DNA of 64,000 bases from an uncultured Candidatus Saccharibacteria bacterium (GCA_964367745.1 CAYIYK010000003.1:10248-74247), one strand, 5' to 3'; positions 17,761 through 62,882 are shown, counted from the stretch's first letter. Numbers and translations: made by a program. The notes: generated from the letters alone by a model not told the origin.

Positions 17761-17877
17761 TAGAAGATAGCTTTACACGTTGGGGGCTACTTTCGTCCAC
17801 AAGGACTATCCAACGGTGAGGAGTGAGAGAATCCAATAAACAACCGGCGCTAATTTCTCTCTGGGCGCCGGTTTTTT
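17761..17877 (+). ncRNA. Candidate small structured RNA of about 115 nt, with its own promoter (17726-17754) and terminator (17844-17877). Identity unknown.
   Basis: TTGACA(17726), then a 17-nt spacer, then TAAGCT. No ORF follows. An internal cgttgg...ccaacg stem encloses a gtcc-acaa-ggac hairpin. The terminal hairpin ccggcgc-N14-gcgccgg is followed by TTTTTT. The next gene is on the opposite strand. Confidence 0.3.
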
Positions 17878-17896
17878 CTTGCCTAAATCTTAAACA

Positions 17897-18610
17897 TTAT
17901 AACGCCTGCTCTACCCCACCCTCCATCAAATAATATCTCTTCAAAGGTTTTAGATTCTCATCTAGCTCATAGACTATCGGAACTGCATTCTTTATCTCAA
18001 TTCCAACTATCTCATCATCACTTACGTTATCTATATGCTTCACCATTGCTCTTATACTATTGTTACTTGCAGAAATTAGAACTCTTTTACCACTCTTTAT
18101 AGCTGGCACGATCTCTGATTCCCAATATGGCATTACTCTCTTGATAGTATCTTCTAGTGATTCACCTAGCGGCAATTCACTTTCTGACAGATCAGCATAC
18201 ATTGGATCATGTCCTGGATATCTAGGATCATCTTTTGTTAATTGAAGTGGCTTGTCACTAAAACTTCTTCTCCATTTGTGTACTTGTTCTGGTGAATACT
18301 TTGCACCAATATCAGCATGCTTTTGTCCCTGCAAAGCTCCATAATGTCTTTCATTTAATCTCCAAGAGTATTTTATTGGTAAATCATTTATACCAATTTC
18401 ATTTACTACAGTATTTAAAGTATCTTTTGCTCTTTTAAGAACTGAACAAAAGGCCAAATCAAAACCGAAACCTGCATTTTTTAGATTTTTACCTGCAACT
18501 TTGGCTTCCTCAACTCCCTTCTCTGTTAGATCAACGTCTGTCCAACCACAAAACATCTTTTCAATATTATAAACTGTCTGTCCGTGTCTTATTATTACTA
18601 ATTTATACAT
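17897..18610 (-). CDS. gpmA: 2,3-bisphosphoglycerate-dependent phosphoglycerate mutase
   Basis: MYKLVIIRHGQTVYNIEKMFCGWTDVDLTEKGVEEAKVAG..., containing the RHG phosphohistidine motif. 237 aa. Confidence 0.9.
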   Translation of the reverse strand: MYKLVIIRHGQTVYNIEKMFCGWTDVDLTEKGVEEAKVAGKNLKNAGFGFDLAFCSVLKRAKDTLNTVVNEIGINDLPIKYSWRLNERHYGALQGQKHADIGAKYSPEQVHKWRRSFSDKPLQLTKDDPRYPGHDPMYADLSESELPLGESLEDTIKRVMPYWESEIVPAIKSGKRVLISASNNSIRAMVKHIDNVSDDEIVGIEIKNAVPIVYELDENLKPLKRYYLMEGGVEQAL

Positions 18611-18641: not shown

Positions 18642-19925
18642 TTAAAAGTTATTTTTATCTTCAGCTTTTTTAAACAAAGCTAGTACGATACTTACATATT
18701 TTACAAGGAGGATAATAGAGGTTACCCAGAATAAACCAAAACCTATACCCGCAAGGACGTCCGATAACCAATGCACGCCGAGATATACCCTACTGAATGC
18801 AGTAAGAATTATAGACAATACACACAGTACAACCAATATTTCTCTAACTATCATTGATTTTACTTTTACAATAAAGAAATATATAAGGAGGGTGAAGAAA
18901 ATCGTTGATGCAACAGCATGTCCACTTGGGAAGCTATATCCTTTTACTAGAATAAAAGCATTCTCAGGTCTAATCCTTGTAACTATGTTTTTTATTATAA
19001 AAGTGAATACATAACCACCACCTAGTGAGAATATTGATATTAAAGAATAATAATAATTCTTTTTATGAATCAAATAAGCAATCAATACCAAACTAATTCC
19101 AGTAATAAGTGTTGGACTAAATATATTCGTAAATATAAGCATAAAATCTCTCAACACTTCAGATGAATGGATAAAGAAGAAATTGTTTACAAAAACATCT
19201 AGTTCAAGCAGAAAAACTTTATCTGTAATTGCATCTTGTAGTGTTTTAAAGAATAAATAAAGTCCAAACAGATTGAAACCTAGAGTAATTAGTTCGTATT
19301 TTGCGAATATATGGAATTGTTTATTTATAAATCTATAACCCCACACTATCAATATACCAATCAAGACTGCTATGAAAATATACTTACCCAATACCTTTGA
19401 CATTATGTGATAGCTAGCACCAAAAACATAACCTAGTAGGACTGATGTAATTGACCAGATAAAAACACCAATAAAATCCCAAATCCAGAATATTTTTGTA
19501 TGTATTCCACTCGCGCCGAGCATAAATGGTGTAAGTGTTCTTGTAATAGGGTTATACTTTCCGAAAATTATTGCTTTTGCTTTATGTTCCTTTACAAGTT
19601 TTAAGATTTTATCTAGATATTCCTTCTTAACAAAAAAATATGGACCTAATTTCTCTAGAAGAGATATACCGTACTTTTTTCCCAAAATAAAACCAATAAT
19701 ATCTCCTAGTAAAGCCCCAATACTTACTACAGGTATGACCACAAACAAATTTAATATACCTAATTTTGATAAGAAACCTGAAATAATTACAATAGTGTGT
19801 CCTGGAACGAATTGTCCAATTATTGGTATACCTTCTACAATGGTTATTAAGAAAAGAAGTAGGTAACCACCGTTTTCAACTATAGTCTGTAAGTTACTAG
19901 ATACTGAGTGAAGAAAATTATACAT
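18642..19925 (-). CDS. Fusion protein: N-terminal DedA/SNARE-associated (PF09335) membrane domain plus C-terminal PAP2 phosphatase (BcrC/PgpB-like undecaprenyl-diphosphatase family)
   Basis: N-terminus: LLLFLITIVEGIPIIGQFVPGHTIVIISGFL...GKYNPITRTLTPFMLG, the DedA core. C-terminus: KGYSFPSGHAVASTIFF...SRVYLGVHWLSDVLAG, which carries the PAP2 motifs (PSGH and SRxxxxxHxxxD). Confidence 0.65.
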   Translation of the reverse strand: MYNFLHSVSSNLQTIVENGGYLLLFLITIVEGIPIIGQFVPGHTIVIISGFLSKLGILNLFVVIPVVSIGALLGDIIGFILGKKYGISLLEKLGPYFFVKKEYLDKILKLVKEHKAKAIIFGKYNPITRTLTPFMLGASGIHTKIFWIWDFIGVFIWSITSVLLGYVFGASYHIMSKVLGKYIFIAVLIGILIVWGYRFINKQFHIFAKYELITLGFNLFGLYLFFKTLQDAITDKVFLLELDVFVNNFFFIHSSEVLRDFMLIFTNIFSPTLITGISLVLIAYLIHKKNYYYSLISIFSLGGGYVFTFIIKNIVTRIRPENAFILVKGYSFPSGHAVASTIFFTLLIYFFIVKVKSMIVREILVVLCVLSIILTAFSRVYLGVHWLSDVLAGIGFGLFWVTSIILLVKYVSIVLALFKKAEDKNNF

Positions 19926-20055
19926 AGATTAGGTATTTAATAATTATAACACAAACGAGATAAATTCCTGATAAAATTTTTATAATAGATTTCCACAAAT
20001 AAATTTGATTTAGAGCCATAATTATTCAATAATCAAATCATAAAAATACAATATT

Positions 20056-20724
20056 ATGAAAATCCTGATTATTGAAGACGATGTAGATATTTCCAGTTTC
20101 ATAAAGGACAATCTTACAGAGAGTACATATTCAGTTGAAGTCGCAAAGGATGGACCTGATGGATCATTTCTGGCCAGAACAAATTATCACGATGTTATCA
20201 TAATGGATTATTCACTTCCTTCAAAAGACGGAGTTTTGGTTTGTGAAGAGATAAGATCATCAGGTGTTGAAACACCCATAATATTCCTAACCGTACATAC
20301 AGACGTCAAAAAGAAGGTTAAAGCATTAGAAAAAGGTGCGGATGACTATATGACTAAACCTTTCTCTATCGAAGAGTTAAAAGCGAGGATACAAGCTCTA
20401 GTGCGTAGACCTAGGAAAATCGAAAGTCCTGTACTGATAGTTGGAGACCTAGTTTTGGATACACACAAAAGAACAGTTAGAAGAGGTGAAACACCTATTT
20501 ATCTAACTAGAAAGACTTATGATCTATTGGAATATCTTATGAGGAATAAAGGTATAGTGCTTTCAAGGGGATCTATAATGGAATATGTATGGAACTCAGA
20601 TAGTGATCCATTCTCAAATACCATAGAAGCACATATCCTAAACCTCAGAAAGAAAATCAATGTTAGAGGTAAAAAGGATATACTAAAGAATATTCCAGGT
20701 AGAGGTTATATTATGGGGTCCTAA
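20056..20724 (+). CDS. OmpR-family response regulator (receiver plus winged-helix). It is an orphan: no histidine kinase gene is adjacent.
   Basis: MKILIIEDDVDISSFIKDNL...DVIIMDYSLPSKDG...GADDYMTKPFSIEELKARIQALVRR...LTRKTYDLLEYLMRNKGIVLSR... Confidence 0.8.
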   Translation: MKILIIEDDVDISSFIKDNLTESTYSVEVAKDGPDGSFLARTNYHDVIIMDYSLPSKDGVLVCEEIRSSGVETPIIFLTVHTDVKKKVKALEKGADDYMTKPFSIEELKARIQALVRRPRKIESPVLIVGDLVLDTHKRTVRRGETPIYLTRKTYDLLEYLMRNKGIVLSRGSIMEYVWNSDSDPFSNTIEAHILNLRKKINVRGKKDILKNIPGRGYIMGS

Positions 20725-22957
20725 ACTTACCTTCTTCTATTTGCTTTATAGCCTCATCTACTTGAGACTTTATAAGTGGGAATCTTTCTTTTGCTTTCTT
20801 TAGAAGTTCAATCGCTTGGTATTCTTGTTTACTCAATAGATAAACATAAGCTAGAGATGAATATACTTCTTGATTGTCTTGATCTTTAGCTAATATCTTC
20901 TTATATATTTCAATAGCTTTATCGTACTGTTTTGACAATACATAAGCATTTATAACTCTTGGATCGCTGAATACTTCGAAATCATCTCCAAATAGCTTCT
21001 TCGCTTTTACTTCTTCACCTGCCGTTATAAGAGCTGTAACGTAAGTAGTCTTGGCGATTGGATTGTCTGTTGCTGATTGATACGCTTTGTCTAATATCTC
21101 AACTGCTTCTTTATTTTTACCGATATTTAGATAGTTGACGGCTAGTTCAAATATTATACTTTGCTTGTTTGGAGAAAGTTCATTTGCTTTTTCAAGTAGT
21201 GGTGTAGCTGTATTAAAATCTCTTATAGTATCATAATAACTTCCACCAATAATATATATTCTTGCATCATTCGGAGTTTTCTTTATTTGATTTTCTATTT
21301 CTTTCTTTGCCAAATCGTAGAATGCAGCCTTTTTATCTTGTTGCATTTGTGGATTTTGTATTACATTTGCTGAACAATTTAATAGTTGCTCAACCGACTC
21401 TTGATTTGCAACTGTCTGTCTTAGTTTGAATATTTTTTCAAATGGTACTACTGATACTGTTTGAGGATTTGAACAAGCTATAAGTGCATTTATAAGTCCT
21501 GTATTCGCTTGTATAGCGCGCACATTCACAAAATACATTGAAGTAATGAATAAGATAACAACAACAGGTACATATACATAATCTCTTACTGTTTCAGCAT
21601 CTTCAGATATTGATTTGCTGTAATTTTTAAATATAAATAAATCTTTATTCTTTCTTAATGAATGAACAAAAGCGAGCAATGTAAAGAACATTACATAACT
21701 TGTTTGATTGTCGAATACGAATACATTGTGTATTGCATATCCTACCAATAGACCGATAAGTATAGATTTTTCACCAATAGTTTTTTCACTTTTAATGATA
21801 AAGATTAGAGAGATTAAATATAGAGCTAGATACGCAACTAATCCTAGTATTCCTCCGGCAACAAACCAATCTAGGAAAACACTGTGTGCTCGATCAAACC
21901 ATTGCTCATGTCTCCACATTTCAGGATTGTAATGTGAATTGAATATATAGTTAAAGTTCTCTTGCCCAACTCCGATAATTGCTGTCTTTGGGCTCTCTGT
22001 AATTCCCTTTATAGCCATAGGCCAAATAAATCTTCTTGCTTGAGTCTTTGTATCTGAAATAGATATAGAAGCCAATCTTCCCAATACTTCATTCTTTTGA
22101 ATCCAACTAGCATTTCTATTGAAATAAAATAGTGTACCGATAACAACTACTAGTAGAATAACTGAACCAGAAACTACTCTACTTATATTTGATTGACCAC
22201 TACTCTTTCTACCAAAAATTGTATAAATAGCACATGAAGCAATAATAGCAATCGTCCAACCTATGATAGTTCCTCGAGTTGCTGTTTGAAACATTATAAA
22301 AGAGAAAAATGCTGCGGCAATAGCATATGAATAGAACAAATGCTTCTTTGCAAAATAACTTATAGCCAAATATCCCGCAATAAATGCATTAAATAACATA
22401 TAAACCGCCATGTATGCAGAGTTACCTAGAGATGCATCGACTCTACTTCCTTGATGTGTTTCTGCCCAACCGAAAAACTGTGTTAGACCGTAAAGTGCAG
22501 TTATAAATCCAGAAACAATTACAACATTGAAAAACTTATGCCAACTCTCTTTTGTCTTAAGTACTGAAGATAGAACCATGAAATAACCCCAAAGGTGTAT
22601 TATCATCAACCAACCTTCCATTCTTTCGAAGTTTGACCAAATACTTCTAAGTGGATTTAGACCAGCTAAGTCAGCAATCAGAGCAATAAGAGTAAATATA
22701 CCTATAGAAATAGATATTGCATTGCATCGCGGAAGAACACTTCTATCTGTTCCGACAACACTAGTGCCTCTTTCTCTGAAAACAAGAATCAGCCATAGAG
22801 CAAAGACAATTTCAACAATTATTCTAAAAGCGAATCCTTTACCAGTGATGAATGGAAAGAATAAAGAATTAACGACGTAAGTTGGGATAAATGGGATTAC
22901 TGCTAAACCGATAATAATTGCGTATTTGATTAAAGTATTTATTGTTGCATTGTTCAT
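20711..22957 (-). CDS. O-antigen-ligase-family (Wzy_C-like) polytopic membrane protein with a C-terminal TPR-repeat domain
   Basis: 748 aa. The N-terminal ~430 aa have about 12 TM helices and a large loop between late helices, as in WaaL/PglL. The C-terminal ~300 aa are TPR-like (YYDT..., AVNYLNIGKNKEAVEILDKAYQ, SSLAYVYLLSKQEYQAIELLKKA). Confidence 0.45.
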   Translation of the reverse strand: MNNATINTLIKYAIIIGLAVIPFIPTYVVNSLFFPFITGKGFAFRIIVEIVFALWLILVFRERGTSVVGTDRSVLPRCNAISISIGIFTLIALIADLAGLNPLRSIWSNFERMEGWLMIIHLWGYFMVLSSVLKTKESWHKFFNVVIVSGFITALYGLTQFFGWAETHQGSRVDASLGNSAYMAVYMLFNAFIAGYLAISYFAKKHLFYSYAIAAAFFSFIMFQTATRGTIIGWTIAIIASCAIYTIFGRKSSGQSNISRVVSGSVILLVVVIGTLFYFNRNASWIQKNEVLGRLASISISDTKTQARRFIWPMAIKGITESPKTAIIGVGQENFNYIFNSHYNPEMWRHEQWFDRAHSVFLDWFVAGGILGLVAYLALYLISLIFIIKSEKTIGEKSILIGLLVGYAIHNVFVFDNQTSYVMFFTLLAFVHSLRKNKDLFIFKNYSKSISEDAETVRDYVYVPVVVILFITSMYFVNVRAIQANTGLINALIACSNPQTVSVVPFEKIFKLRQTVANQESVEQLLNCSANVIQNPQMQQDKKAAFYDLAKKEIENQIKKTPNDARIYIIGGSYYDTIRDFNTATPLLEKANELSPNKQSIIFELAVNYLNIGKNKEAVEILDKAYQSATDNPIAKTTYVTALITAGEEVKAKKLFGDDFEVFSDPRVINAYVLSKQYDKAIEIYKKILAKDQDNQEVYSSLAYVYLLSKQEYQAIELLKKAKERFPLIKSQVDEAIKQIEEGKFRTP

Positions 22958-24431: not shown

Positions 24432-26312
24432 TTAAAATTTAAATCCTTTTTTCTTTAATTCTTTTAACATGTACTCTGTGATAATCCAATCAAGTGGATA
24501 GTCTATATCTATAGATCTCTCTTTTGGTACTATATACCCTGCAATCTTATCTCCATATAACCTCTCTTCTTTCATAATCAAATCTCTTCTCATACAATAT
24601 ATTGCTGCACTTCTCTTGTATGCTACAGGTAGATCTTGTCTTCTTGTACCTTCTACTTCAGGAACAGAATATGCACTGATGAAGTCACCTTCTAATTTTT
24701 TAATCTTAATTGGATTTACATTACTTGGTACTTCAACTATTGATACTGCACTATCTGCTTTTGTATCTATAAGTTTTTGAATTGTTCCATCGATATCGTC
24801 TATAGTTCTAAAAGGTGAAGTTGGCTGAAGAATAACTACATAGTCGATAGTGATATTATTTTTCTTTTCATAAAAATCTATTGCATGTTGCATTACAGGA
24901 AGATGTGGAGTTGAATCTAGAGCCAATTCTTTTGGTCTCATAAAAGGTACATCTGCACCATACTTCTTACACACATCGGCAATCTCTTTGTCATCTGTTG
25001 AAACGATAAGATGATTTATCAATTTACTTTTCTTTGCAGCATCGATTGTATATGCAATAAGAGGTTTATTGCCAAGTTTCTTTATATTCTTACCCGGAAT
25101 ACCTTTTGACCCTCCGCGAGCTGTAATAACGCCAAGGACGTTTGGAGTTCTGTATTCCCTATCTACATGTTCTTCTGTAAGCGGTTCAAATTTCTTTATA
25201 TCTTTTATTATTTTTTTATCCAAAATATCATGGAAAAGATTCGAGAAAATTCCATTTAGATGAAGTCTTGGTCTCATAGCGTAAACCATATCACTCGTGA
25301 TTATTGTTCCAGCTTTAATATCTCTTGAAGCAACGAGTGTTTTGTTGAAATAAGGTCTAAACTTATTTTGTGCACCTTCCAATTCTTTTTCCTTTTGACC
25401 GTAGAAAATATTTGTATCTATTTTCTTATATTCATTTTTCTTAATACCAGAGACCAATTGTTTCATTTCTTCTGGAGTTACTGAAGCTTTATGGTCTGAA
25501 CCCCAAAGGCCTCGGTCTAGAGAAAAGTGTTTCTCTATAACCTGCGCACCCATTTTTACTGCAGCTAAAGGAATAGTATTATCTCCAACTGAATGATCAG
25601 AAAAACCGATGATCGCTTGAGGGTATTTTTCTCTAAAATATTCTATAGTAGAAAGGTTAAAAGCTTCTGGAGGACATGGATATTCACTAACGCAATATAG
25701 AATAATAATTGGTGACCCACGCTTTGTTATATAGTCAACAACGTCATCCAACTCTTTGTGACTAACCATTCCTGTTGAAATGATTATTGGTTTTTGTGTC
25801 TTTGTAATAAAGTCCAAAAGAACATGATCCTGAACATCACCAGAACCTACTTTCCAGAAAGGTACATCTAGATTCTCAAGCTTAACCGCTGCCATTCTAG
25901 ACATCGGAGTTGAGAAGAATATAATTCCCTTTTTTTCTGAATATCTTTTTATCTCTTTGAAGAATTCTATAGGTGCTTCTTCAGTATTTCTTTTAACCCA
26001 AGAATATCTATCACTGCCTTTGAAGTGCGGAGAAACTACATTTATATTTGCTTGTTCATCTTCAACTTCATGAGTTTGAAATTTCACAGCATGTGCACCA
26101 GCTTTTACTGCTTCGTCGATAAGCTTTTTTGCATTTTTAATATAGACTTTTAGAGGTTGAGACTCTTGTGTTTGTATAAAATTCTTACCGATTTCAGCAA
26201 TAACAAAAACTTTATCTTTTGATATGATCTTAGAGATAGCGTGAGGTTTCACTATTTTTGAATTTTTGTTCTTACTGGCTTTAGAAGATTTAACAGACTT
26301 TTTTGTTTTCAT
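24432..26312 (-). CDS. Bifunctional fusion: N-acylneuraminate (nonulosonic acid) synthase NeuB with SAF domain, plus CMP-N-acylneuraminate cytidylyltransferase NeuA
   Basis: N-terminal half: VFVIAEIGKNF...AVKFQTH...IIILYCVSEYPCPPEAFNLSTI...GFSDHSVGDNTIPLAAVKMGAQVIEKHFSLD, then an SAF domain (LVASRDIKAGTIITSDMV). C-terminal ~230 aa: LGVITARGGSKGIPGKNIKKLGNKPLIAYTIDAA...LIVSTDDKEIADVCKKYGADVPFMRPKELALDST, the NeuA/CMP-Kdo-synthase-like fold. The first ~25 aa are Lys-rich. Confidence 0.75.
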   Translation of the reverse strand: MKTKKSVKSSKASKNKNSKIVKPHAISKIISKDKVFVIAEIGKNFIQTQESQPLKVYIKNAKKLIDEAVKAGAHAVKFQTHEVEDEQANINVVSPHFKGSDRYSWVKRNTEEAPIEFFKEIKRYSEKKGIIFFSTPMSRMAAVKLENLDVPFWKVGSGDVQDHVLLDFITKTQKPIIISTGMVSHKELDDVVDYITKRGSPIIILYCVSEYPCPPEAFNLSTIEYFREKYPQAIIGFSDHSVGDNTIPLAAVKMGAQVIEKHFSLDRGLWGSDHKASVTPEEMKQLVSGIKKNEYKKIDTNIFYGQKEKELEGAQNKFRPYFNKTLVASRDIKAGTIITSDMVYAMRPRLHLNGIFSNLFHDILDKKIIKDIKKFEPLTEEHVDREYRTPNVLGVITARGGSKGIPGKNIKKLGNKPLIAYTIDAAKKSKLINHLIVSTDDKEIADVCKKYGADVPFMRPKELALDSTPHLPVMQHAIDFYEKKNNITIDYVVILQPTSPFRTIDDIDGTIQKLIDTKADSAVSIVEVPSNVNPIKIKKLEGDFISAYSVPEVEGTRRQDLPVAYKRSAAIYCMRRDLIMKEERLYGDKIAGYIVPKERSIDIDYPLDWIITEYMLKELKKKGFKF

Positions 26313-37873: not shown

Positions 37874-38992
37874 ATGAAAAAGCCTATTCTGCTACTCTGG
37901 ATAATTTCATCATGGATTCTCTATCCTTTTTTTAGTCTATCTTCAAAAATTAAGAGTAAGAAACTAGGTAAAAAGAAAAGGATACTTGTATTACCTCAGC
38001 TTTCTAGAATTGGGGACATCGTCTGTTCTACAGGCGTATTTTATAACATAAAAAAATCATATCCTGATAGTTATGTATCTGTACTAGTATCAAAGAGAGC
38101 ATTTGGAATTATAAAAAACAATAAAAGAATCGATAATTTTATTATTTATGAAGACTATTCTTTTTTTGGTTTAATAAATAAAATTAAATCAGAGAATTTT
38201 AACTATTCAATAAACCTCACAGCAACATCAATAAATACATGTTTAACACTTTGGAGTTGTATAGATCACAGAATAAAGACTGTGGTAGAAAATCCCCCGA
38301 TTACTGAGAGACTAACTGATTGTATGTCTAATCATCGATTGTTATACAAGAATCATACGTATTTACCGCTTCATCATATAAAGTTGTTGAATTTTATTGG
38401 AATAAATAATCCTGAAGATAAAAAAGAAATCTGGCTAAGTGATACAGCAGAAATAAAAGCGAATGATTTTGTTAAAAATCTTGGAGAAAATAAGAAAATA
38501 ATTGGAATAAGTATAACCGCAGGAAATAAAATAAAAGAACTCGGTGATGAGAGATTTGAAAAATTAATAAATAAACTATTAGAAAATAAAGAAAATATTG
38601 TTTGTTGTATAGGATCAAAAAACGATTCAGAAAGAATAGATAAAATAATATCAAGCGTAAATAATCCTCGTTTCATTAAAGCAACAGATTTTAACTTGGA
38701 AGAGTTACCATCTCTTATGAAAAGATTCTCACTTTATATAGCAGTTGATACAGGCCCTATTTATATCGCACATGCTCTGGGAGTACCTCTAATAGACATA
38801 ATAGGTCCAGTAGATCCGGATGAACAACCACCAAAAGACAGTAAGAGTATACGAATTCTTCCTAGAGGAGATATTAAGCCTAGTTCATTTGTATTTAAGA
38901 GACGTGGAACTCAAGATGAAATCATCTCAGCAATACAAAATACTGATATAAACGATATCTATAAAGCAGCAAGTATACTATTGAGTAAGTAG
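37874..38992 (+). CDS. Glycosyltransferase family 9 (heptosyltransferase-like)
   Basis: KRILVLPQLSRIGDIVCSTGVFYNIKKSYPDSYVSVLV is the GT9 N-terminal signature, and DTGPIYIAHALGVPLIDIIGP is the GT9 C-terminal motif. Confidence 0.65.
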   Translation: MKKPILLLWIISSWILYPFFSLSSKIKSKKLGKKKRILVLPQLSRIGDIVCSTGVFYNIKKSYPDSYVSVLVSKRAFGIIKNNKRIDNFIIYEDYSFFGLINKIKSENFNYSINLTATSINTCLTLWSCIDHRIKTVVENPPITERLTDCMSNHRLLYKNHTYLPLHHIKLLNFIGINNPEDKKEIWLSDTAEIKANDFVKNLGENKKIIGISITAGNKIKELGDERFEKLINKLLENKENIVCCIGSKNDSERIDKIISSVNNPRFIKATDFNLEELPSLMKRFSLYIAVDTGPIYIAHALGVPLIDIIGPVDPDEQPPKDSKSIRILPRGDIKPSSFVFKRRGTQDEIISAIQNTDINDIYKAASILLSK

Positions 38993-40366
38993 ACCGTATC
39001 TAACAAACCATCCTCGAACTATTGATATTCCCTTTCGAAGGATTATTTTATCTTCTTCTTTGAAACCAAAGATAATTTTAAAATCAAAATGGAATCCTTT
39101 ATCCTGATTTTTTGTGTATATATAGTTTGCAATAACCATAATTAAAGGTACGAGTACAAATTCAAGAGACAATCCCCAAAGACCGATAATTGGTAGGGTA
39201 GAAACGATGAGACCAAGAGTCAAACTATTTCTTAATAGATGTAGAAAGAAAAGGTATTTTTGTTTTCGTAGTGCTATGAGATAGTTGCCGATTATGATTC
39301 CACTTGCAAATATTGGTAAATTCAAGAGCATAAAGTAGAACAATGGTATTGATTGTGCGTATTTTGAGAAGAAAGTATAGACGACTGGTGGCACGACAAC
39401 AATCGCTGATATAACCACCAATATACTTCCAAGTACAAAATATTTTATTCCATAAGAAAACATTTTTACCGATAGATGTTTGTCTTTTATCCAAAGTGGT
39501 ACGAGAGATTGCATTGTATTACTTGGAATTAGATCTTGAATAGTTGTAACAATAGTCTCTGCGATAGAATATATAGCCACTGCTTCTGTGCCAATGAAAA
39601 GTTTAACCAGCCAAGGTTTAACCCTGAAAGTTATTTTATTTATAAATTGTCGAAGCACATCCCAAGTACCATAGGTGGTGAAAATATTCCACAACAATAC
39701 ATTTGGAGTAGCTACAATATGACTCCATTTGAAATATACCTTGAAGAATTGATATGAAACTGCCAAAACACTGAGTGATGAAGCGATGATTATAGATAGT
39801 ATCAATTGTTTCAAACCAAGATTGCCTTGCAGGAAATAATAAATAAGTACAATAGATTGAATAGCTTTATTTATAGTATATCTCTGAGCAACTACTGAGA
39901 ACTTCAATCTGACTAGACATAGTAATCGTATAAGAACGAACAATCCTTCACTCAAAATCACAAAAGAAATCATTCTCATATCTTTTACGAAATCGATATC
40001 GTAAGATTTAAAGAAGTAAACTGAACCGAAGAATATTATTGCCCAAGCAATGAAAGTTATAACTATTCTAACCAAAGAATATTCTAAGAAAATTCTCTTT
40101 GCATCACTAAGTCTATTGTCAGCAATTGCTCGAGACATTTCATTTGAGATAATAGCTGAACCAAGATTCAAAACATCAGACGGTACACCTGAAAAAGAAA
40201 GTAGGAGTTGGAATACACCGTACTGATACAGGGTAAGAGATGTAATGGTTAAGAATGTATTCAATAGACCTATTGCCTTTGTCACAAGATTCCAAAAGGT
40301 TGAAATAGCTTCCCCTTTTAAGAAAATAGCCATAAATGACGGCTTTTTTTGAGTATTTGTATCCAT
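38978..40366 (-). CDS. Polytopic membrane protein, Wzx-like oligosaccharide flippase (MOP superfamily) candidate
   Basis: 462 aa with about 12-14 TM helices. It sits inside the glycan locus. No catalytic motifs, and the topology resembles Wzx. Confidence 0.4.
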   Translation of the reverse strand: MDTNTQKKPSFMAIFLKGEAISTFWNLVTKAIGLLNTFLTITSLTLYQYGVFQLLLSFSGVPSDVLNLGSAIISNEMSRAIADNRLSDAKRIFLEYSLVRIVITFIAWAIIFFGSVYFFKSYDIDFVKDMRMISFVILSEGLFVLIRLLCLVRLKFSVVAQRYTINKAIQSIVLIYYFLQGNLGLKQLILSIIIASSLSVLAVSYQFFKVYFKWSHIVATPNVLLWNIFTTYGTWDVLRQFINKITFRVKPWLVKLFIGTEAVAIYSIAETIVTTIQDLIPSNTMQSLVPLWIKDKHLSVKMFSYGIKYFVLGSILVVISAIVVVPPVVYTFFSKYAQSIPLFYFMLLNLPIFASGIIIGNYLIALRKQKYLFFLHLLRNSLTLGLIVSTLPIIGLWGLSLEFVLVPLIMVIANYIYTKNQDKGFHFDFKIIFGFKEEDKIILRKGISIVRGWFVRYGLLTQ

Positions 40367-41817: not shown

Positions 41818-43476
41818 ATGATTAAGAAAATTATAAAACACCCATTAAGTTATATATTACTTTTTGCTTTTTTAATTCGTATAGTAATGATCAAATACGG
41901 TTTGCCATTCTGGCTATACAATGACGAACCACCTTTTGTACTTACAACACTGAAGATGTTCCAACTAAAAACACTGTTACCAGTGTTACATGAAGCTGAT
42001 TTCAAGCCTTTCATGTATTACCCTCCTTATATTAGTTATCTATATATTCCCTTCTTTTTATTTTCTATAGCACTATCATGGATTGGTTTTGATGGAAACC
42101 TTAGTGAGTTACAGAATGTCTTGGCTAGTGATCCTTCTATATTTTTCATAACAGCGAGAGTAATAATGATTTTTATTAGTATATTAACAATTTATTTAAT
42201 ATATAAAATAACTCAATCATTAACTCAAAGTAAGACAGCATCACTTTATTCTGCAATCCTTTCTTCAACAAGTTTAATGTTTATAAGTCTTTCAATCACA
42301 GGCAAACACTGGGTACCAATACTTTTCTTTTATACACTTTGTCTTTTTATACTTACACGTCCGAATTGGTCTATTAAAAAGAGATATATATTGTCAGCAG
42401 TTACTATTGGTATCGGAACTGGTGTAGGTACTGTGGTGATTCTTTTTTCAGTTGTTATTTTCCTTTGGTATATAACGTACGATAAAGTAAGTATGAAAGA
42501 AAGTTTGACTAGCTTACTTATGTACAAACTAGGTTTTATCGTAGTTATTTTATCTTTTATTCCAGTTCTTCTTTATCCTGCAAGTCTTGGTTTCGTACCA
42601 GACACAACATTACATGGAGGTAAAACTCTTTTAGGATTCATAACTAGTCCTTTTGTCTTTCCATTCCCTTTTATCGCCACGGAACCAGTTTTGGTATTAC
42701 TTAGTCTTATTGGTTTATATCTCGGTTTTAAAAAATACAAACCATTCTATATAACATCTATCATTTTTACAGTGTTTTACAGTATGATATTCTATGTATT
42801 TTTCAGATTCGAATACCGTTTCCTTTTACCTCTTGTATTGTTCTTAATAGTTGGATCAGCAATAGGAATAAATGAGATTAGGAATAAATACCCAAACAAA
42901 TATTCTAAAGCATTTATTTATCTAATTCTTCTAATCCCAATATTATTCTCTTTGAGACTTAGTTATCTTGGTTATGTAAATGATTCAAGAATAAAAGCAA
43001 AAGAATGGTTGAATGCCAATACCGAAGCTGATGACAAAGTTATCGTCTATGCAAACCTTATGAGAATAGCGAATAATAAAAATGGAATATTGGAACAAGA
43101 ATTCATCGATTCTAGATCATTGAGGACAAATGATAAAAACATGTTGAATATTCGAGACGGTTTGATAAAAGAGAAGACATTCCACGCTTTAAATCTATAT
43201 ACAGTTGAGAACGACAATTTCTACAAAATGATTGATGTTTATGCAAAAAAGAATGGCTATAAATATCTAATATTTAGTAAAAAAGATTTCTTAGATAAAT
43301 CTGAACAGTTTGAGTATGTTAAAAATCTTACAAAAGATGCTAAACTTATGGCAAGCTATGGTAATAATGAGAGTAACTATTCCCTATCAAAAACAGACAT
43401 TGGACCTAATTTATTACCTTTCTTTAGAATAAATGAATTCGGACCAGAGATAGAGATATATAAATTGAATAACTAA
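41818..43476 (+). CDS. GT-C fold membrane glycosyltransferase (PMT_2 / dolichyl-phosphate-mannose protein-mannosyltransferase-like) with a C-terminal soluble domain
   Basis: 552 aa. MIKYGLPFWLYNDEPPF is the typical first-loop motif of ArnT/PMT-like enzymes. About 11 TM helices are followed by a ~180-aa soluble C-terminal domain. Confidence 0.55.
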   Translation: MIKKIIKHPLSYILLFAFLIRIVMIKYGLPFWLYNDEPPFVLTTLKMFQLKTLLPVLHEADFKPFMYYPPYISYLYIPFFLFSIALSWIGFDGNLSELQNVLASDPSIFFITARVIMIFISILTIYLIYKITQSLTQSKTASLYSAILSSTSLMFISLSITGKHWVPILFFYTLCLFILTRPNWSIKKRYILSAVTIGIGTGVGTVVILFSVVIFLWYITYDKVSMKESLTSLLMYKLGFIVVILSFIPVLLYPASLGFVPDTTLHGGKTLLGFITSPFVFPFPFIATEPVLVLLSLIGLYLGFKKYKPFYITSIIFTVFYSMIFYVFFRFEYRFLLPLVLFLIVGSAIGINEIRNKYPNKYSKAFIYLILLIPILFSLRLSYLGYVNDSRIKAKEWLNANTEADDKVIVYANLMRIANNKNGILEQEFIDSRSLRTNDKNMLNIRDGLIKEKTFHALNLYTVENDNFYKMIDVYAKKNGYKYLIFSKKDFLDKSEQFEYVKNLTKDAKLMASYGNNESNYSLSKTDIGPNLLPFFRINEFGPEIEIYKLNN

Positions 43477-53948: not shown

Positions 53949-55823
53949 TTACTTTACCTTAAGTACATCACGAAGTACATCTTCAGGAACCTCTCTTTTT
54001 GTGTCACTTTTTTCGTGATGATTAGCATGACTTTTATGTATTTCATTTGGTTTATGGTCACTTGAAGTATTTTGATGATTCGAATGATTTGAACCATCTG
54101 AATCTTTTTTTACATGCTCGTCCTTATGTGCCAAAACTGATGCCAAAGCACTCTTTAATTCATTTATTCTTTGTGGATGTGCATCTTTATGATGATTATG
54201 AGCCTTAGGTGTATTTGTTAGAGAATTCAGAGATACAGACTTTAACTTAGGAAGATTTGGTTGGGGTTTTGGATAATTTGATTGTTGCACATGATTTTGG
54301 ACACTTGGCTGTACAGGTGCTTGGACTGATTGTTGAGGTGGTTGCTGAATAGGCTGTTCTGCGACAATTGGCTTTGGTGGAGGTGGAGGTATATGTGCAG
54401 GTGCAGGTGTGGGTGCAACTGTAGCTACTGGTTTGGGCGGTTGTGTATTTGTTGCAGGAGTACTAGAACCATTCTGAGTAGAATTCGAAGCGGTAGATGC
54501 ACCGGGCGTAGGATTCTTTGGAGTTACAACAGGCTTTATTGGTGCAAGCCATTCTTCGATTTTCTTTTCTACTTCTGGTCTCTTACTAGCAAACTGTCTT
54601 CTTGATTCTTCAATCACAGCAAGAGCATTGGACTTCTCTGGTAAAGGAATGGGTGGCAATGTTGTAGCAGAAAATGGTGATGAACTTATACCATCAATCA
54701 TCAGTTTCAAATATATTTGAAATATTCCGAGATTAACAATATCTTCAGCGGTGAACTGTGGTGCGAATTCTTTTTCCAAAACTTCTGCATCATAAGCGCC
54801 AACACGGAACACGATCATTGTTCCAACGTTTCCAAAAACCGCAGCTCTAACCTCTTCTTCCATTTGCTCTATATACTGGTGAGCCATAGTAAGATTCAGT
54901 TTATATTTTCGAGCTTCAGAGAGAATATCTGCAAAAGATTCATTTGCAAATGATTGGAATTCGTCTACGAATAGATAGAAGTTTGGAAGTTTTTTTATAA
55001 CATTATCTGACACATCAGCACGAGAAAGTGCAGCGAGATATATCTTGGTTATTATCATTCCACCCAAAAGATTTGCATTCGATTCTCCGATTCTTCCTTT
55101 TGATAAGTTAACTATAAATATCTTACTCTTATCCATCATTTCACGGAGATTGAAAGATGATTTTGGTTGACCGATCATATTTCGTATCAGAGCATTCGCA
55201 GTGAACTGACCGATTTTATTTTGTATTGCAGGAACAGCTTCGGCAGCCATTCTTTCTGTATAGTTTGCAAATTCTTGTACCCAGAATGATTTTACTGATG
55301 GATCAGTAACACAGGCCACTACTTGCTTCCTGAATTCTTTATCAGAAAGCATTCTATTTACCCCAAGCAGGGTTGCGTCAGGATATTCAAGTAAAGCCAA
55401 AAGAGTATTTGTAAGAATATACTCCATTCTCGCTGACCAAGCATCTTGCCAGATCTTTTTGAATGTACTCATAAGACCAGATACAACTAGATGTCTTTTG
55501 TCATGATCAACGTTTTCAAGTACGTTGAATGATATAGGATAGTCCATATCAAAAGGTGCAAAATACACAACGTCTTGTCTTCTATTCTCAGGAATATATT
55601 CTAGTAGCAATTCCGCTGTCTTACCGTGAGGGTCGAGGAAGGCCATACCTTCCCCATTTTTTATATCTTGCACAGCCATGTTTTCAAGTAGAGTAGATTT
55701 ACCCATACCTGTCTTACCGATCACATAAACGTGCTTTGTTCTATCTTTGGCTTTAATACCAAAACTTACCTTTTTATTTCTGGCATCAGTTTGACCAAAA
55801 TATGTAATCTTTTCTTCATTCAT
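53949..55823 (-). CDS. Soluble P-loop ATPase of the VirD4/TraD (type IV coupling protein)/HerA-like superfamily, with a long C-terminal Pro/Gln-rich then His-rich disordered tail
   Basis: 624 aa. Walker A: HVYVIGKTGMGKSTLLENM. Walker B: NFYLFVDEFQSF. There is no N-terminal TM anchor. The C-terminal ~200 aa read PKPVATVAPTPAPAHIPPPPPKPIVAEQPIQQPPQQSVQAPVQPSVQ... and then HNHHKDAHPQ...HSNHQNTSSDHKPNEIHKSHANHHEKSD. Confidence 0.5.
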   Translation of the reverse strand: MNEEKITYFGQTDARNKKVSFGIKAKDRTKHVYVIGKTGMGKSTLLENMAVQDIKNGEGMAFLDPHGKTAELLLEYIPENRRQDVVYFAPFDMDYPISFNVLENVDHDKRHLVVSGLMSTFKKIWQDAWSARMEYILTNTLLALLEYPDATLLGVNRMLSDKEFRKQVVACVTDPSVKSFWVQEFANYTERMAAEAVPAIQNKIGQFTANALIRNMIGQPKSSFNLREMMDKSKIFIVNLSKGRIGESNANLLGGMIITKIYLAALSRADVSDNVIKKLPNFYLFVDEFQSFANESFADILSEARKYKLNLTMAHQYIEQMEEEVRAAVFGNVGTMIVFRVGAYDAEVLEKEFAPQFTAEDIVNLGIFQIYLKLMIDGISSSPFSATTLPPIPLPEKSNALAVIEESRRQFASKRPEVEKKIEEWLAPIKPVVTPKNPTPGASTASNSTQNGSSTPATNTQPPKPVATVAPTPAPAHIPPPPPKPIVAEQPIQQPPQQSVQAPVQPSVQNHVQQSNYPKPQPNLPKLKSVSLNSLTNTPKAHNHHKDAHPQRINELKSALASVLAHKDEHVKKDSDGSNHSNHQNTSSDHKPNEIHKSHANHHEKSDTKREVPEDVLRDVLKVK

Positions 55824-55875
55824 ATGGAGTTCTATATGTTTAATATTTTACCATGGTTTTTTATATTAAGTATAG

Positions 55876-57441
55876 TTAATTATGACTGTATATTGTATAT
55901 AAATTATCACTATATACCCTCTTCAAATTTGAGTATTTTAATAAATCATTTCTATTATCCTGTATTACATATTGAATATCGTATTTTTCTAGATTTTTTA
56001 ATATCCTTTCTTGTGTGTTTGAACTCATAACATCATGAATTCTCTCTGGCTTTGATATCCACTGCCCCGCATATAATGTCCAAAAAACATAATTTCTTGA
56101 ATAAAGCGGTATATATTGTGAAAGAGATTCCGGTGCCATAAATATTGAATCTTTAGAATTCGACTTTATCCAATTAAGTATGGGGACATATCTTTGAACA
56201 TAAATAGTATAATCTAAAGAGTTTTTATATGAATTAATTTGAATCAAAATAGAATTAAAAATACAAAGAATAGACAGCAGGTATATTATTGCAATACAAA
56301 TTTTTGATTTTATATTGTCAGACAGAAATTCCTTTATAAAATAGACTATTGAGATAACCAAGACTGGACTGAATACATACATTTCGAAATGACCATATTG
56401 CATTATAAGTCCAGTTATAACATGTTCATTTCTAGTTAGAAAACAAGCAGATATTAGGCCTGAAATAAATATAAATTCATCATTAATAATTTTATTCTTC
56501 TTATAAACCAAAAAGAGCAGCGTAGAACAGACTATAAAAATTGATATTCCAAACAAACTAACATCAGGAATATGACTCATTCTTAAATATTCATGTGGGA
56601 TGGTTAAATAGTACTCATGAGACATTAGATTCACAATCTGATAAAAGACTGGAATAGCCAATATTATACCTACTGATAAACTGACAACAAGACCCTTAAG
56701 TCTGTCAAATTCTTTTCTAAAAAAATAAATCCCAATAAAAACTAGATTTAACACAGTTAAATATGCATATGTAAAGAAATAAACATAGAATGACAAACCA
56801 AAGAAAATACCGAGGATGATATACCACAGTCTAGTATTCTTTTTAATTGCTAAATACAAAATATTTAAATATAAGAAAAAATACAAAGAACTGAATTGAG
56901 GATTAACAGGTCTAGAGAATATAAGGAATTGATCCTCATCAGTTACAAACCTAAACAGATTCAATAAATCATGAATATTTAACAGATCAACGAAATTCAA
57001 GAGATTATACCCAAGCACAATAAACAGTGACCCGAGTATAGATATGTGAATATTCCTAGTAATTCTATCGAGCAGCAAAAAAGACAGAAGGAAGATAATG
57101 ATCGGCAACACAAGTTCGTACAAAATCTTTAAATCCAGCGTATCTATACTTAATATGATACCTGGCAGTGCCAATATCATAGACGAAATAGATGAATCAA
57201 AGTGTGGGAAATTATAGCCATACTCTTTTATAAAAGGATTACAATTAAACGTACAACCCATGTATGCTCCTTGAATTTTATTCAGATATAGTGACTCTGC
57301 ATCGGTATTCATTATTGGTATACCACTAAAGTTAGTACTGTGAATAAATAAAATATTTGGCAATACATAAATAACACCGCAAACTAGAGAGATGATAAGG
57401 ATCGATAGAAATTTCTTAGAAAACATAAATAAATTATACAT
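55876..57441 (-). CDS. Large polytopic membrane protein immediately downstream of pilA. It is a candidate pilin glycosylation/assembly factor, in the position of tfpO/pilO O-oligosaccharyltransferases. The likely ATG is at 57441; the six-frame ORF starts at a TTG at 57444.
   Basis: About 520 aa with at least 12 predicted TM helices and several larger loops. It is on the same strand as pilA, 51 nt downstream. No soluble enzymatic motif was recognised by eye. Confidence 0.35.
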   Translation of the reverse strand: MYNLFMFSKKFLSILIISLVCGVIYVLPNILFIHSTNFSGIPIMNTDAESLYLNKIQGAYMGCTFNCNPFIKEYGYNFPHFDSSISSMILALPGIILSIDTLDLKILYELVLPIIIFLLSFLLLDRITRNIHISILGSLFIVLGYNLLNFVDLLNIHDLLNLFRFVTDEDQFLIFSRPVNPQFSSLYFFLYLNILYLAIKKNTRLWYIILGIFFGLSFYVYFFTYAYLTVLNLVFIGIYFFRKEFDRLKGLVVSLSVGIILAIPVFYQIVNLMSHEYYLTIPHEYLRMSHIPDVSLFGISIFIVCSTLLFLVYKKNKIINDEFIFISGLISACFLTRNEHVITGLIMQYGHFEMYVFSPVLVISIVYFIKEFLSDNIKSKICIAIIYLLSILCIFNSILIQINSYKNSLDYTIYVQRYVPILNWIKSNSKDSIFMAPESLSQYIPLYSRNYVFWTLYAGQWISKPERIHDVMSSNTQERILKNLEKYDIQYVIQDNRNDLLKYSNLKRVYSDNLYTIYSHN

Positions 57442-57471
57442 CAAAAAACACCCTATGGGTGTTTTTTGATG
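57439..57471 (-). terminator. Perfect 15-bp inverted repeat with a 3-nt loop between pilA and the downstream gene. On the minus-strand transcript it is a hairpin followed by a U-rich tract whose 3' arm contains the downstream gene's AUG.
   Basis: catcaaaaaacaccc-tat-gggtgttttttgatg on the plus strand, about 25 nt after the pilA stop codon. The minus-strand RNA reads 5'-caucaaaaaacaccc-aua-ggguguuuuuugAUG-uauaauuuauuuauguuuuc. Confidence 0.55.
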
Positions 57472-57495
57472 TAACCGTATTGTTACCAGATTGTA

Positions 57496-57975
57496 TTAAG
57501 ACGCAGGGCAAGCTGTAGCATTTATTGCAAGAACAGTTGTAACTTGTCTTGAAGCGCCTGTATTATCTACACACCATCCAACTGGTGTACCACTCACTGA
57601 AGCCTTCAGCGGAGCCCAGATAACCCATGTTGCTGATGCATCGTGACATTGTGCAGTGTTCCAAGTTGAAGCAGTTCCATCAGCAAATACCGCAGCTGTT
57701 CCTCCGAAAGCGGCTTGAGCAGCCATTACACTGTCTCCAATAACATTAGCACCTGTTAACGCACATACGGCATCATAAACATTAGTTCCATTATCATAGA
57801 ACAATTCTGCCTCAGCTCTAGCACCTGCTAGGTTTGACTTTATAGCTGTATCAGCTCCCTTTGAACGTGCTGTGTTTAGTGAAGCCAAAACAACTGATGA
57901 CAATATACCGATAATAGCGATAACTACAAGCAACTCAATCAATGTAAAACCTTTTTGCAAATATGATTTCTTCAT
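57496..57975 (-). CDS. pilA: Type IV (class III signal peptide) major pilin
   Basis: MKKSYLQKGFTLIELLVVIAIIGILSSVVLASL is the prepilin leader (a G-F cleavage site, with Glu at +5). The C-terminal disulfide loop is CVDNTGASRQVTTVLAINATAC, followed by PAS-stop. The protein is Ala/Gly/Thr-rich. pilC, pilT and pilB lie upstream. Confidence 0.85.
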   Translation of the reverse strand: MKKSYLQKGFTLIELLVVIAIIGILSSVVLASLNTARSKGADTAIKSNLAGARAEAELFYDNGTNVYDAVCALTGANVIGDSVMAAQAAFGGTAAVFADGTASTWNTAQCHDASATWVIWAPLKASVSGTPVGWCVDNTGASRQVTTVLAINATACPAS

Positions 57976-58015
57976 AACGAAATAATTAACTTAATAAATA
58001 AAACTAATAATTCAA

Positions 58016-58044
58016 CTTATACACGTAAGTATATCAAACCTCAA
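58016..58044 (-). promoter_or_regulatory. Candidate sigma70-type promoter for pilA
   Basis: On the minus strand: TTGAGG, then 17 nt, then TATAAG, about 40 nt upstream of the pilA ATG. No sigma54-type GG-N10-GC element was found. Confidence 0.3.
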
Positions 58045-58085
58045 AAAAATAGCGCAATATCGTATGGGGATAAGTAGTTGATAAC

Positions 58086-59294
58086 TTATTGAGCACTTGC
58101 AACGTTGTATATAGGTATAAGAACTGAAGCAAGCAGTGTAGCAACACCAAGTCCCAAAAGGACGATCATAGCGGGTTCAATAAGATCGACTAGTGCATCT
58201 ACAGCAGTTACTACTTCTCTAGAGTAAAATCTCGACAAAGTCTTCAATATTGCACCGAGTTCTCCTGATTCTTCTCCCACTCTCATCATTTGAATCATAA
58301 TTCCGGGGATTTCACCGTTACCTGAAAGTGCTTCTGATACCGTCTTTCCTGCTTTTACTGAATCTACAGCATCAGAAAGTATTTTTTTATAAATACTATT
58401 GTTTATAACAGATGAAGTTAGTTCTAGTGAACGAATCATTGGAATTCCTGACATAAGCATAGTATTCATATTGTCAGAAAGTCTTGCCCAATATAGTTTC
58501 CTAAAAAGATTACTCATATAAGGGATACTAAGTTTGAATTGATCAAAAACGATTGTGCCACTTGGAGTTCTTATATATCTAATTAAAATAAATCCAAGCA
58601 CCACAACGATCGCAACAACAATAAAGCCTTTTTCTACCAAGAAATTACTTATACCCAGAACAACTTTTGTATATATTGGAATATCTTGTCCAGACTCAGT
58701 CAAAATTGTACTGATCTTTGGAATAACCATAGTGAACATAAGTATCATCACGGTTATAAATGTCATCATAACGAAAGCTGGATATATAAGAGCACTCTTG
58801 GCTTTTGAAACAAGTTCATATGTTCTATCTAGATAGTCAGCAAGGTAAGCAAAAGTCTCATTTAGTTTACCTGACTCTTCTCCTGCTTTTACCATACTTA
58901 CATAAAATTCTGAGAATACCTTTGGATGTTTCTCTAGAGCGCTTGATATCTGACTTCCCGCTTGTAGATCATCGGCGATCTGGATTAGCTTTGTACCCAA
59001 AACTTTATTATCACATTCAGCGCCTAAGAGTCTAAAGATTCTCAGAGCCGAAACCTGTGCTTCAAAAAGTGTTGCTAGTTGTCTTGAAAGTATAACTATC
59101 TCTTTATTTGACACTCTATCAAGAAAAGATAGGTTCATTGAAAGAAGTCCTCCCTTTTTATCTGCTTCATTTATAGAAGTAATAACCAGGCCTCTTCTTT
59201 GCAAAGAAGCAATAGCAATATCGACATTCGCAGCATCTATAGAGCCTTTTTGTTGTGTTCCCGCTTGATCTACTGATTGATAATTAAATAACAT
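58086..59294 (-). CDS. pilC: Type IV pilus inner-membrane platform protein (GspF/PilC family)
   Basis: 402 aa. It has two T2SS_F repeats (LATLFEAQVSALRIFRLL...; LSRFYSREVVTAVDALVDLIEPAMIVLLGLGVATLLASVLIPIY) and 3 TM segments. Confidence 0.9.
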   Translation of the reverse strand: MLFNYQSVDQAGTQQKGSIDAANVDIAIASLQRRGLVITSINEADKKGGLLSMNLSFLDRVSNKEIVILSRQLATLFEAQVSALRIFRLLGAECDNKVLGTKLIQIADDLQAGSQISSALEKHPKVFSEFYVSMVKAGEESGKLNETFAYLADYLDRTYELVSKAKSALIYPAFVMMTFITVMILMFTMVIPKISTILTESGQDIPIYTKVVLGISNFLVEKGFIVVAIVVVLGFILIRYIRTPSGTIVFDQFKLSIPYMSNLFRKLYWARLSDNMNTMLMSGIPMIRSLELTSSVINNSIYKKILSDAVDSVKAGKTVSEALSGNGEIPGIMIQMMRVGEESGELGAILKTLSRFYSREVVTAVDALVDLIEPAMIVLLGLGVATLLASVLIPIYNVASAQ

Positions 59295-59302
59295 ATAAAA
59301 TA

Positions 59303-60361: not shown

Positions 60362-60381
60362 ATAATTTAATTATGAAAAAA

Positions 60382-62878: not shown

Positions 62879-62882
62879 AATA

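Follow-up and report, generated by a model that had tools for sequence, protein, structure and literature searches.

A DedA–PAP2 fusion protein encoded opposite an OmpR/PhoB-type regulator in a Saccharibacteria-like genome and its possible part in undecaprenyl carrier recycling

Proteins in which a DedA domain is fused to a PAP2 phosphatase were described in publications of 2022-2023, which also interpreted them as units for recycling of the undecaprenyl lipid carrier. Roney & Rudner reported synteny and fusion of dedA and pap2 for about 1.3 % of dedA genes (bioRxiv 2022.02.03.479048, Fig. 3A/S11), and took both as evidence that UptA acts right after the dephosphorylation of undecaprenyl diphosphate (Und-PP). 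Similarly, Sit et al. noted "many instances" of DedA–PAP2 fusion as evidence for undecaprenyl-phosphate (Und-P, C55-P) flippases (PMC9876793), and a fusion with PF01569 is listed within COG0586 by Todor et al. (PMC9881974). The only fused protein studied experimentally so far is PA4011 of Pseudomonas aeruginosa (437 aa, PF09335 and PF01569), which affected the emergence of colistin resistance, and which neither complemented nor aggravated the loss of the flippase PA4029; its function was called elusive and a role in lipid remodelling was suggested (PMC12893004). No relevant publication was retrieved in a literature search for Saccharibacteria and undecaprenyl recycling. A first-pass annotation of the locus described here proposed that fusion of the two domains would couple dephosphorylation of Und-PP to the return of Und-P, which is the mainstream hypothesis for this architecture and not a new one.

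The free-standing relatives of both halves provide the residues against which a fused protein can be compared. The hallmark of Und-P-flipping COG0586 proteins comprises Glu39, Asp51, Arg130 and Arg136 in the numbering of Escherichia coli YghB, with the acidic pair Glu39/Asp51 treated as a signature of flipping driven by the proton motive force (Todor et al., PMC9881974). In Bacillus subtilis UptA (YngC), the residues E32, R112, R118 and W146 matter for the binding of C55-P (PMC11474028). The closest solved PAP2 protein, B. subtilis YodM (bsPgpB), is primarily described as a PGP phosphatase, and can also act as an Und-PP phosphatase (PMC11804483).

Within the 64-kb stretch of DNA analysed here (hereafter the window), a single ORF with an ATG start on the minus strand (18642..19925) encodes a DedA (VTT)–PAP2 fusion protein of 427 aa. 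The Pfam VTT_dom/DedA domain (PF09335) is found at aa 40-166 (62.5 bits, cutoff 33.9; E 6.7e-17) and the PAP2 domain (PF01569) at aa 295-410 (63.8 bits, cutoff 27.2; E 1.7e-17), so that the joining of DedA and PAP2 in one polypeptide, as claimed in the first-pass annotation, is borne out, and the motifs quoted there all occur at the places given for them. An origin of the fusion in a sequencing error, misassembly or frameshift is extremely improbable, with the identical ORF present in two independent assemblies, and is further ruled out by a conserved linker, by relatives with the same layout and by the product name in use at NCBI. This name, "bifunctional DedA family/phosphatase PAP2 family protein", is carried by several relatives from Patescibacteria with 40-55 % identity. 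More than 1,200 relatives of the fusion protein were retrieved in a word-indexed search, the best 120 of which (E<1e-97) are all two-domain proteins of about 400-450 aa. A profile search against 1.84 billion representatives of 50 % identity clusters returned 1,710 cluster representatives at E<=1e-30, with nearly all of the best 150 spanning both halves. Three-domain variants also occur, including DedA-PAP2-LssY_C and DedA-PAP2-methyltransferase proteins. The nearest genome match is in a Candidatus Saccharibacteria MAG (78 % identity). With both domains present in that order and full-length homologues of the same layout, the protein belongs to the bifunctional DedA/PAP2 class. It resembles the published fusions in its N-terminal DedA and C-terminal PAP2 domains, its length (about 420-450 aa among these proteins) and its proposed role, and nothing essential differs, the window copy being Saccharibacteria-like (Patescibacteria) and carrying Lys in place of Arg at the first of two conserved basic positions. 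It is an ordinary new example of a known architecture. PA4011, by its published description, likewise shares its two-domain architecture and is of similar length.

The DedA module (19335..19925, minus strand; aa 1-197), as delimited by PF09335, NCBIfam, alignment to E. coli proteins and the helices of an AlphaFold2 (AF2) model, is predicted to consist of TM1, re-entrant loop 1, TM2, K/R-rich cytoplasmic amphipathic helices, re-entrant loop 2, TM3 and TM4. This predicted pattern, with two re-entrant loops, corresponds to that of the COG0586 DedA proteins UptA, YghB, YqjA and DedA. The AF2 helices fit two re-entrant elements, with breaks at residues 32-41 and 125-142, a correspondence of helix pattern only; sequence-profile and Foldseek searches of the PDB matched no solved DedA structure to this half. 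Among the NCBIfam models, the DedA model PRK10847 is matched with E 1.3e-20, and two UptA models are matched with E-values of 5e-9 and 8e-8, their scores of 36.4 and 32.4 bits falling below the equivalog cutoffs of 250 and 300, respectively. The half shares 20-26 % identity with the E. coli proteins, with DedA as the closest paralogue (26 %), and tblastn matches YghB, YqjA and DedA, and neither of the COG0398 proteins YdjX and YdjZ. The first-pass annotation had named poor alignment to DedA as a finding that would overturn it; the PF09335 score lies above the cutoff, NCBIfam DedA and UptA models are matched and the half can be aligned to YghB, YqjA and DedA. Assignment to a different four-TM family was considered and rejected on the basis of Pfam, NCBIfam, the E. 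coli alignment and tblastn. The N-terminal half is a genuine COG0586-type DedA domain, of the YghB-DedA-UptA type.

This half agrees with the hallmark of flippase-type DedA proteins at three of its four positions. The tip of re-entrant loop 1, EGIPIIGQFVPGH (19797..19835, minus strand; aa 31-43), begins with the acidic residue E31, which aligns with Glu39 of YghB and E32 of UptA. The two basic residues of re-entrant helix 2 are located in KYNPITR (19539..19559, minus strand), where K123, a conservative change, aligns with Arg130 of YghB and R112 of UptA, and R129 with Arg136 and R118. The position of YghB Asp51 is occupied by His43, a difference from YghB, and Asp is absent there. W157 is conserved in the alignment to E. 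coli YghB, YqjA and DedA, and corresponds to W146 of UptA, with the UptA equivalents E32, R112, R118 and W146 matched through the published residue numbers. Across 27 fused homologues with 38-78 % identity, the invariant residues of the DedA half are E31, P34, G37, P41, G42, D75, K117, R129 and W157, and R123 is kept in more than 90 % of them. D75, which lies in TM2, is also present in E. coli DedA but is lacking in YghB and YqjA. In a larger set of fused proteins, E31, D75, R129 and W157 are each conserved in 235-236/240 (E31 in 236, R129 in 235), and the first basic position is Arg in 225/240 and Lys in ten, including the window protein. At the Asp51 position the residues listed for these 240 proteins are His (115), Gln (56), Glu (25) and Ala (10), and do not include Asp. 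At the aligned positions, the Glu/Arg/Arg/Trp network that binds C55-P in UptA is kept in the DedA half, with K123 in place of the first Arg.

The two halves are connected by a basic linker, RFINKQFHIFAKY (19296..19334, minus strand; aa 198-210), which is conserved and predicted to be cytoplasmic, with low pLDDT at residues 205-207. In this region Y197, N201 and F207 are invariant, and H205 nearly so, among the 27 fused homologues. The PAP2 module that follows (18645..19295, minus strand; aa 211-427) is a six-TM lipid phosphatase most like YodM/bsPgpB, and contains the three PAP2 motifs: C1 KNIVTRIRP (KX6RP; 18966..18992, minus strand; aa 312-320), C2 PSGH (18918..18929, minus strand; aa 333-336) and C3 SRVYLGVHWLSD (SRX5HX3D; 18759..18794, minus strand; aa 378-389). 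The catalytic motifs are invariant in the 27 homologues, except for S378, which is nearly invariant, and the loss of conserved motif residues, which the first-pass annotation had considered damaging to its proposal, is not seen. A profile search of the PDB retrieved YodM/bsPgpB (5jki) with E 1.2e-31 (aa 220-401 against residues 24-206 of the chain), and Foldseek comparison of the AF2 model (mean pLDDT 82, pTM 0.64, the termini and linker residues 205-207 being the only parts of low confidence) with 5jki gave a TM-score of 0.79 over 201 columns and along the whole chain, indicating a six-TM PAP2 fold. This fold, the three motifs and a predicted outward-facing site are common to YodM/bsPgpB, BcrC, E. 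coli PgpB, YbjG and LpxE; the window protein differs from YodM/bsPgpB and other membrane PAP2 proteins in its low identity (about 22 %) and in being fused to DedA instead of free-standing. Matches of the PAP2 half to NCBIfam are weak and include PgpB, SepP, PRK11837 and LpxE, all of them far below the equivalog level; PgpB (26 bits), SepP (24.4 bits) and PRK11837 (20.2 bits) compare with cutoffs of 229-261 for these Und-PP phosphatase equivalogs.

The outward orientation of the phosphatase site, for which the first-pass annotation had suggested a topology prediction, was assessed with helix boundaries from the AF2 model and counts of Lys and Arg across 27 sequences. On average 23.6 such residues occur in the predicted cytoplasmic segments against 6.4 in the outer segments, the latter count including the catalytic K312, R319 and R379. 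In the predicted topology the large basic loop 83-125 is inside, re-entrant loop 2 enters from the inside, TM3 runs outward and TM4 inward, the linker 198-210 is inside, PAP2 TM1 runs outward and the catalytic motifs are outside. The register of the PAP2 half agrees with that of YodM, which is N-in, and together with the Lys/Arg counts places the motifs outside. The PAP2 active site is thus predicted to face the extracytoplasmic side, and the fusion appears topologically coherent in the model.

The locus is a mosaic. A patch at approximately 19341..19970, comprising the core promoter and codons 1-195 (the DedA module), is ~35 % diverged from a near-isogenic locus (L092), whereas the flanking genes are mostly 96-100 % identical at the nucleotide level. 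The halves of the protein have opposite affinities in two relatives: compared with P0002 the PAP2 half is 99 % and the DedA half 64 % identical, while compared with P0008 the DedA half is 83 % and the PAP2 half 70 % identical. On the basis of the diverged tract and these opposing half identities, the DedA module has been swapped by recombination as a sharply bounded cassette, with the crossover near the conserved linker.

The fusion gene is separated by a spacer of 130 nt from a divergently transcribed gene for an OmpR/PhoB-family response regulator (20056..20724, plus strand), as the first-pass annotation had reported. The regulator has receiver and Trans_reg_C domains, and its phospho-acceptor pocket (D8, D9, D51, T79, K101) is intact. 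It had also been described as lacking a kinase partner, and no histidine kinase (HisKA/HATPase) was detected in the scanned ORFs, which cover almost all those of at least 110 aa in the 64-kb window, nor was one detected in the syntenic loci L009, L010 and L092. Upstream of the fusion gene, a TATAAT -10 box preceded by TGn (19943..19948, minus strand) lies 17 nt before the ATG. In the loci that have a TATAAT box, only 7-21 nt separate it from the ATG, which points to leaders that are very short or missing. The direct repeat TTTATC-N5-TTTATC, with an 11-nt period (19959..19975, minus strand), ends 10 nt upstream of the -10 box, and a conserved 12-mer, TTTGTGGAAATC (19988..19999, minus strand), lies between the two divergent promoters. 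In nine loci the geometry of the repeat is fixed, with the first repeat starting 27 nt before the -10 box (28 nt in L009), and in two of them both half-sites co-vary (TTTAAT/TTTAAT in L009 and TTCATC/TTCATC in L014); in the locus at 41 % fusion-protein identity the repeat is degenerate. As 12.5 % of shuffles of one AT-rich spacer yield some exact 6-mer repeat with an 11-nt period, the significance of a single sequence is weak, and the case for the repeat consequently rests on conservation, fixed geometry and co-variation. The fusion promoter contains the only exact match to the repeat in the 64-kb window, and the three matches with one mismatch found in a search of the window for a regulon are not above chance. 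An intergenic palindrome, TGATTA-N-TAATCA, was also considered as an operator and rejected, being most simply explained as the -35 and -10 elements of the regulator's own promoter.

In Pho boxes, and in class II activation by OmpR-family regulators, direct repeats take the place of the -35 element. The fusion promoter resembles the PhoB/Pho box system in that a pair of direct repeats, with a period of 11 nt, ends 10 nt upstream of the -10 box and a gene for an OmpR/PhoB-family regulator is adjacent; it is unlike that system in the repeat itself, which is TTTATC and not CTGTCAT. It is plausible that the TTTATC repeat is a candidate site for the divergent OmpR/PhoB-type regulator.

Beyond the regulator, and in synteny with the fusion gene, the minus strand (20711..22957) encodes a membrane protein of 748 aa that is of the Wzy_C type (O-antigen ligase/polymerase-like) and carries a TPR domain at its C-terminus. 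The order Wzy_C-TPR, regulator, divergent DedA-PAP2, phosphoglycerate mutase and enolase is kept in loci with fusion proteins of 82 %, 78 %, 63 %, 60 % and 50 % identity. At 55 %, 53 % and 41 % identity the regulator alone adjoins the fusion gene, and in one locus at 44 % identity the arrangement is gone. Glycans linked to Und-PP are the substrates of Wzy_C enzymes at the outer face of the membrane, where these enzymes release Und-PP, and by analogy this neighbour would fit the idea of Und-PP recycling. Furthermore, a large glycan island is located at about 23 to 53 kb of the window. It encodes a NeuB/CMP-sugar synthetase fusion, a UDP-GlcNAc 2-epimerase, two TagF-like glycerophosphotransferases, a Wzx-like flippase, a GT-C PMT_2 protein adjoining GT2 and GtrA, and many glycosyltransferases of the GT4, GT2 and GT9 families. 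The many polyprenol-dependent steps encoded there agree with the first-pass description of an island next to the fusion gene that consumes the polyprenol carrier. Among the scanned ORFs of the 64-kb window, no other Und-PP phosphatases or flippases were detected.

On balance, the protein is somewhat more probably than otherwise a bifunctional Und-PP phosphatase and Und-P translocase under the control of the neighbouring regulator. Polymerases or ligases of peptidoglycan and glycans, the syntenic Wzy_C-TPR protein among them, would release Und-PP on the outside. The PAP2 half would hydrolyse this outer-face Und-PP to Und-P, and the DedA half would return the Und-P to the cytoplasmic leaflet, two consecutive recycling steps being carried out within one polypeptide. 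Transcription would be controlled by the divergent OmpR/PhoB-type regulator through the Pho-box-like repeat, which stands where a -35 element would otherwise be. In the fused family, His or Gln would occupy the position of the second acidic residue that binds protons in stand-alone flippases (Asp51 of YghB), and the direction of transport may accordingly be set in part by the irreversible phosphatase reaction and not by full proton coupling. The recycling unit proposed in the first-pass annotation is accordingly upheld in part: the domains, motifs, predicted topology and genetic context are coherent with it, but the equivalent of Asp51 is missing and the equivalog scores lie far below the cutoffs. 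The absence of this Asp, the Lys at the Arg130 position and the sub-cutoff NCBIfam scores all weaken the recycling interpretation, as do the result obtained with PA4011 and the main description of YodM as a PGP phosphatase.

These last two observations are also what speaks for the main rival explanation, in which the PAP2 half dephosphorylates an outer-face glycerophospholipid (PGP, PA or similar) and the DedA half scrambles or moves phospholipid, as PetA does with PE, carrier recycling not being the main task. The closest solved relative of the PAP2 half is a PGP phosphatase, phospholipids can be substrates of transport by DedA proteins (PMC10193950; PMC11804483 discussion), PA4011 does not seem to take part in C55-P recycling, with lipid remodelling suggested instead (PMC12893004), and the Asp51 hallmark is missing. 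However, Und-PP is also hydrolysed by YodM (PMC11804483), the DedA half keeps the E-R-W network of the Und-P-type COG0586 proteins together with both basic residues that bind phosphate, the phospholipid-scramblase-like COG0398 proteins are without these residues (Todor et al., PMC9881974), and synteny with an Und-PP-releasing Wzy_C enzyme is conserved. A pairing of phospholipid phosphatase and scramblase is thus regarded as unlikely, at about one chance in a handful.

The missing Asp also bears on the direction of transport. Und-PP is made inside the cell, but its dephosphorylation takes place solely outside, and no flippase for it is known (PMC12826051); the module may activate the de novo carrier by outward delivery of Und-PP, instead of, or besides, returning Und-P. 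A phosphatase fusion would suit the handing over of substrate as well as the removal of product, loss of the proton-coupling Asp would be tolerable where hydrolysis pulls the flux, and PA4011 is without flip-back activity (PMC12893004). More broadly, the fused DedA module could be a facilitated channel for the lipid carrier, its direction set by the phosphatase, and not a proton-driven importer, and could even represent the missing outward Und-PP flippase; this would explain both the loss of the Asp51 proton site and the failure of PA4011 to replace a flip-back flippase. Outward delivery is nevertheless purely inferential, movement of Und-PP having been shown for no DedA protein, and it is the monophosphate that the corresponding residues bind in UptA (PMC11474028). 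Both the delivery of Und-PP and the wider channel interpretation are given a low probability. Equally improbable is a DedA half that does not transport and instead provides an inducible, BcrC-like Und-PP phosphatase with a membrane scaffold, a dimerisation domain or a regulatory domain. Replacement of the DedA half as a cassette (64 % identity), next to a PAP2 half that hardly changed, would be in keeping with such a role, as would the one missing hallmark residue, but E31, D75, R123, R129 and W157 are conserved in about 235/240 fused proteins (R123 in 225), and this conservation of the DedA site argues for selection on a transport site, and not on a scaffold only.

To the published architecture the present locus adds the synteny with the regulator and Wzy_C-TPR genes, conserved to about 50 % identity (and further for the regulator alone), the Pho-box-like repeat and the exchange of the DedA cassette. 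The fused class lends itself naturally to the study of how transport by DedA proteins gains direction; of the two residues proposed to bind protons it lacks one, and its sole tested member behaved unexpectedly. Peptidoglycan synthesis and the synthesis of all surface glycans depend on recycling of the lipid carrier. If the published hypothesis is true, one protein performs two consecutive steps of this recycling, and the fusion could be a main recycling route in a reduced genome of the Saccharibacteria type.

The DedA-PAP2 fusion gene (window 18642-19925, minus strand) carries a recombinant tract of approximately 630 nt (window 19341-19970), which spans the core promoter and codons 1-195, encoding the DedA module. 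Comparison with L092, the locus of a near-isogenic strain, and with the comparison loci L001 and L093, showed this tract to be approximately 35 % diverged with sharp edges, and its surroundings to be mostly 96-100 % identical. The nearest relatives of the fusion protein differ between its DedA and PAP2 halves. Between the phosphoglycerate mutase and enolase genes, a portion of the spacer (window ~17800-17900) is only ~57-59 % identical to L092, with flanks of 94-100 % identity, and may represent another small tract that was replaced or altered by indels.

Across 240 fused DedA-PAP2 proteins, the position equivalent to YghB Asp51, a hallmark residue of flippase-type DedA proteins, is mostly occupied by His, Gln, Glu or Ala, with Asp absent among the residues listed. 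The acidic D75 in TM2 is near-invariant in this set; E. coli DedA also has this residue, whereas YghB and YqjA lack it. Three-domain variants, DedA-PAP2-LssY_C and DedA-PAP2-SAM methyltransferase, occur among the collected relatives P0242 and P0258 (~670-711 aa) and P0199 (680 aa).

The fusion gene is preceded by a Pho-box-like promoter (window 19941-19999, minus strand), where a TTTATC-N5-TTTATC repeat lies upstream of a TGn-TATAAT box, the repeat ending 10 nt from it. This geometry is constant across nine loci, namely the window, L001, L009, L010, L012, L013, L014, L016 and L092, with the half-sites jointly changed in 2/9. The promoter region also includes a conserved 12-mer, TTTGTGGAAATC (19988-19999, minus strand). 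Since the start codon follows the -10 box by 7-21 nt among the syntenic loci (7 nt in L012), and no Shine-Dalgarno sequence was evident by eye in the leaders of L012 and the other syntenic loci, the sequence suggests that the fusion-gene transcripts are leaderless or near-leaderless.

A large surface-glycan island (window 23000-53900) encodes a NeuB-cytidylyltransferase fusion (24432-26312), a Wzx-like flippase (38978-40366) and a GT-C PMT_2 protein (41818-43476) together with GT2 and GtrA, as well as a UDP-GlcNAc 2-epimerase, two TagF-like glycerophosphotransferases, many methyltransferases and GT4, GT2 and GT9 enzymes. The region 53949-63996 begins with the gene for a TraG/VirD4-like coupling ATPase (53949-55823) and continues with a type IV pilus cluster encoding pilin-like N_methyl, PilC-like, PilT-like, PilB-like and PilO-like proteins. 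Within this cluster is a receiver-only response regulator (60382-60768), with no kinase nearby, as is the case for the OmpR/PhoB-family regulator beside the fusion gene.

The 3' ends of the gene for the latter regulator and of the convergent Wzy_C-TPR gene overlap over 14 nt (window 20711-20724), an arrangement recurring in L001, L009, L010 and L092. Directly downstream of the fusion gene lies a cofactor-dependent-type (His_Phos_1) phosphoglycerate mutase (17897-18610), whereas in loci of 50-60 % identity this slot is occupied by a cofactor-independent iPGM encoded on the opposite strand (L009 7276-8802; L010 7284-8804), which looks like a non-orthologous replacement.
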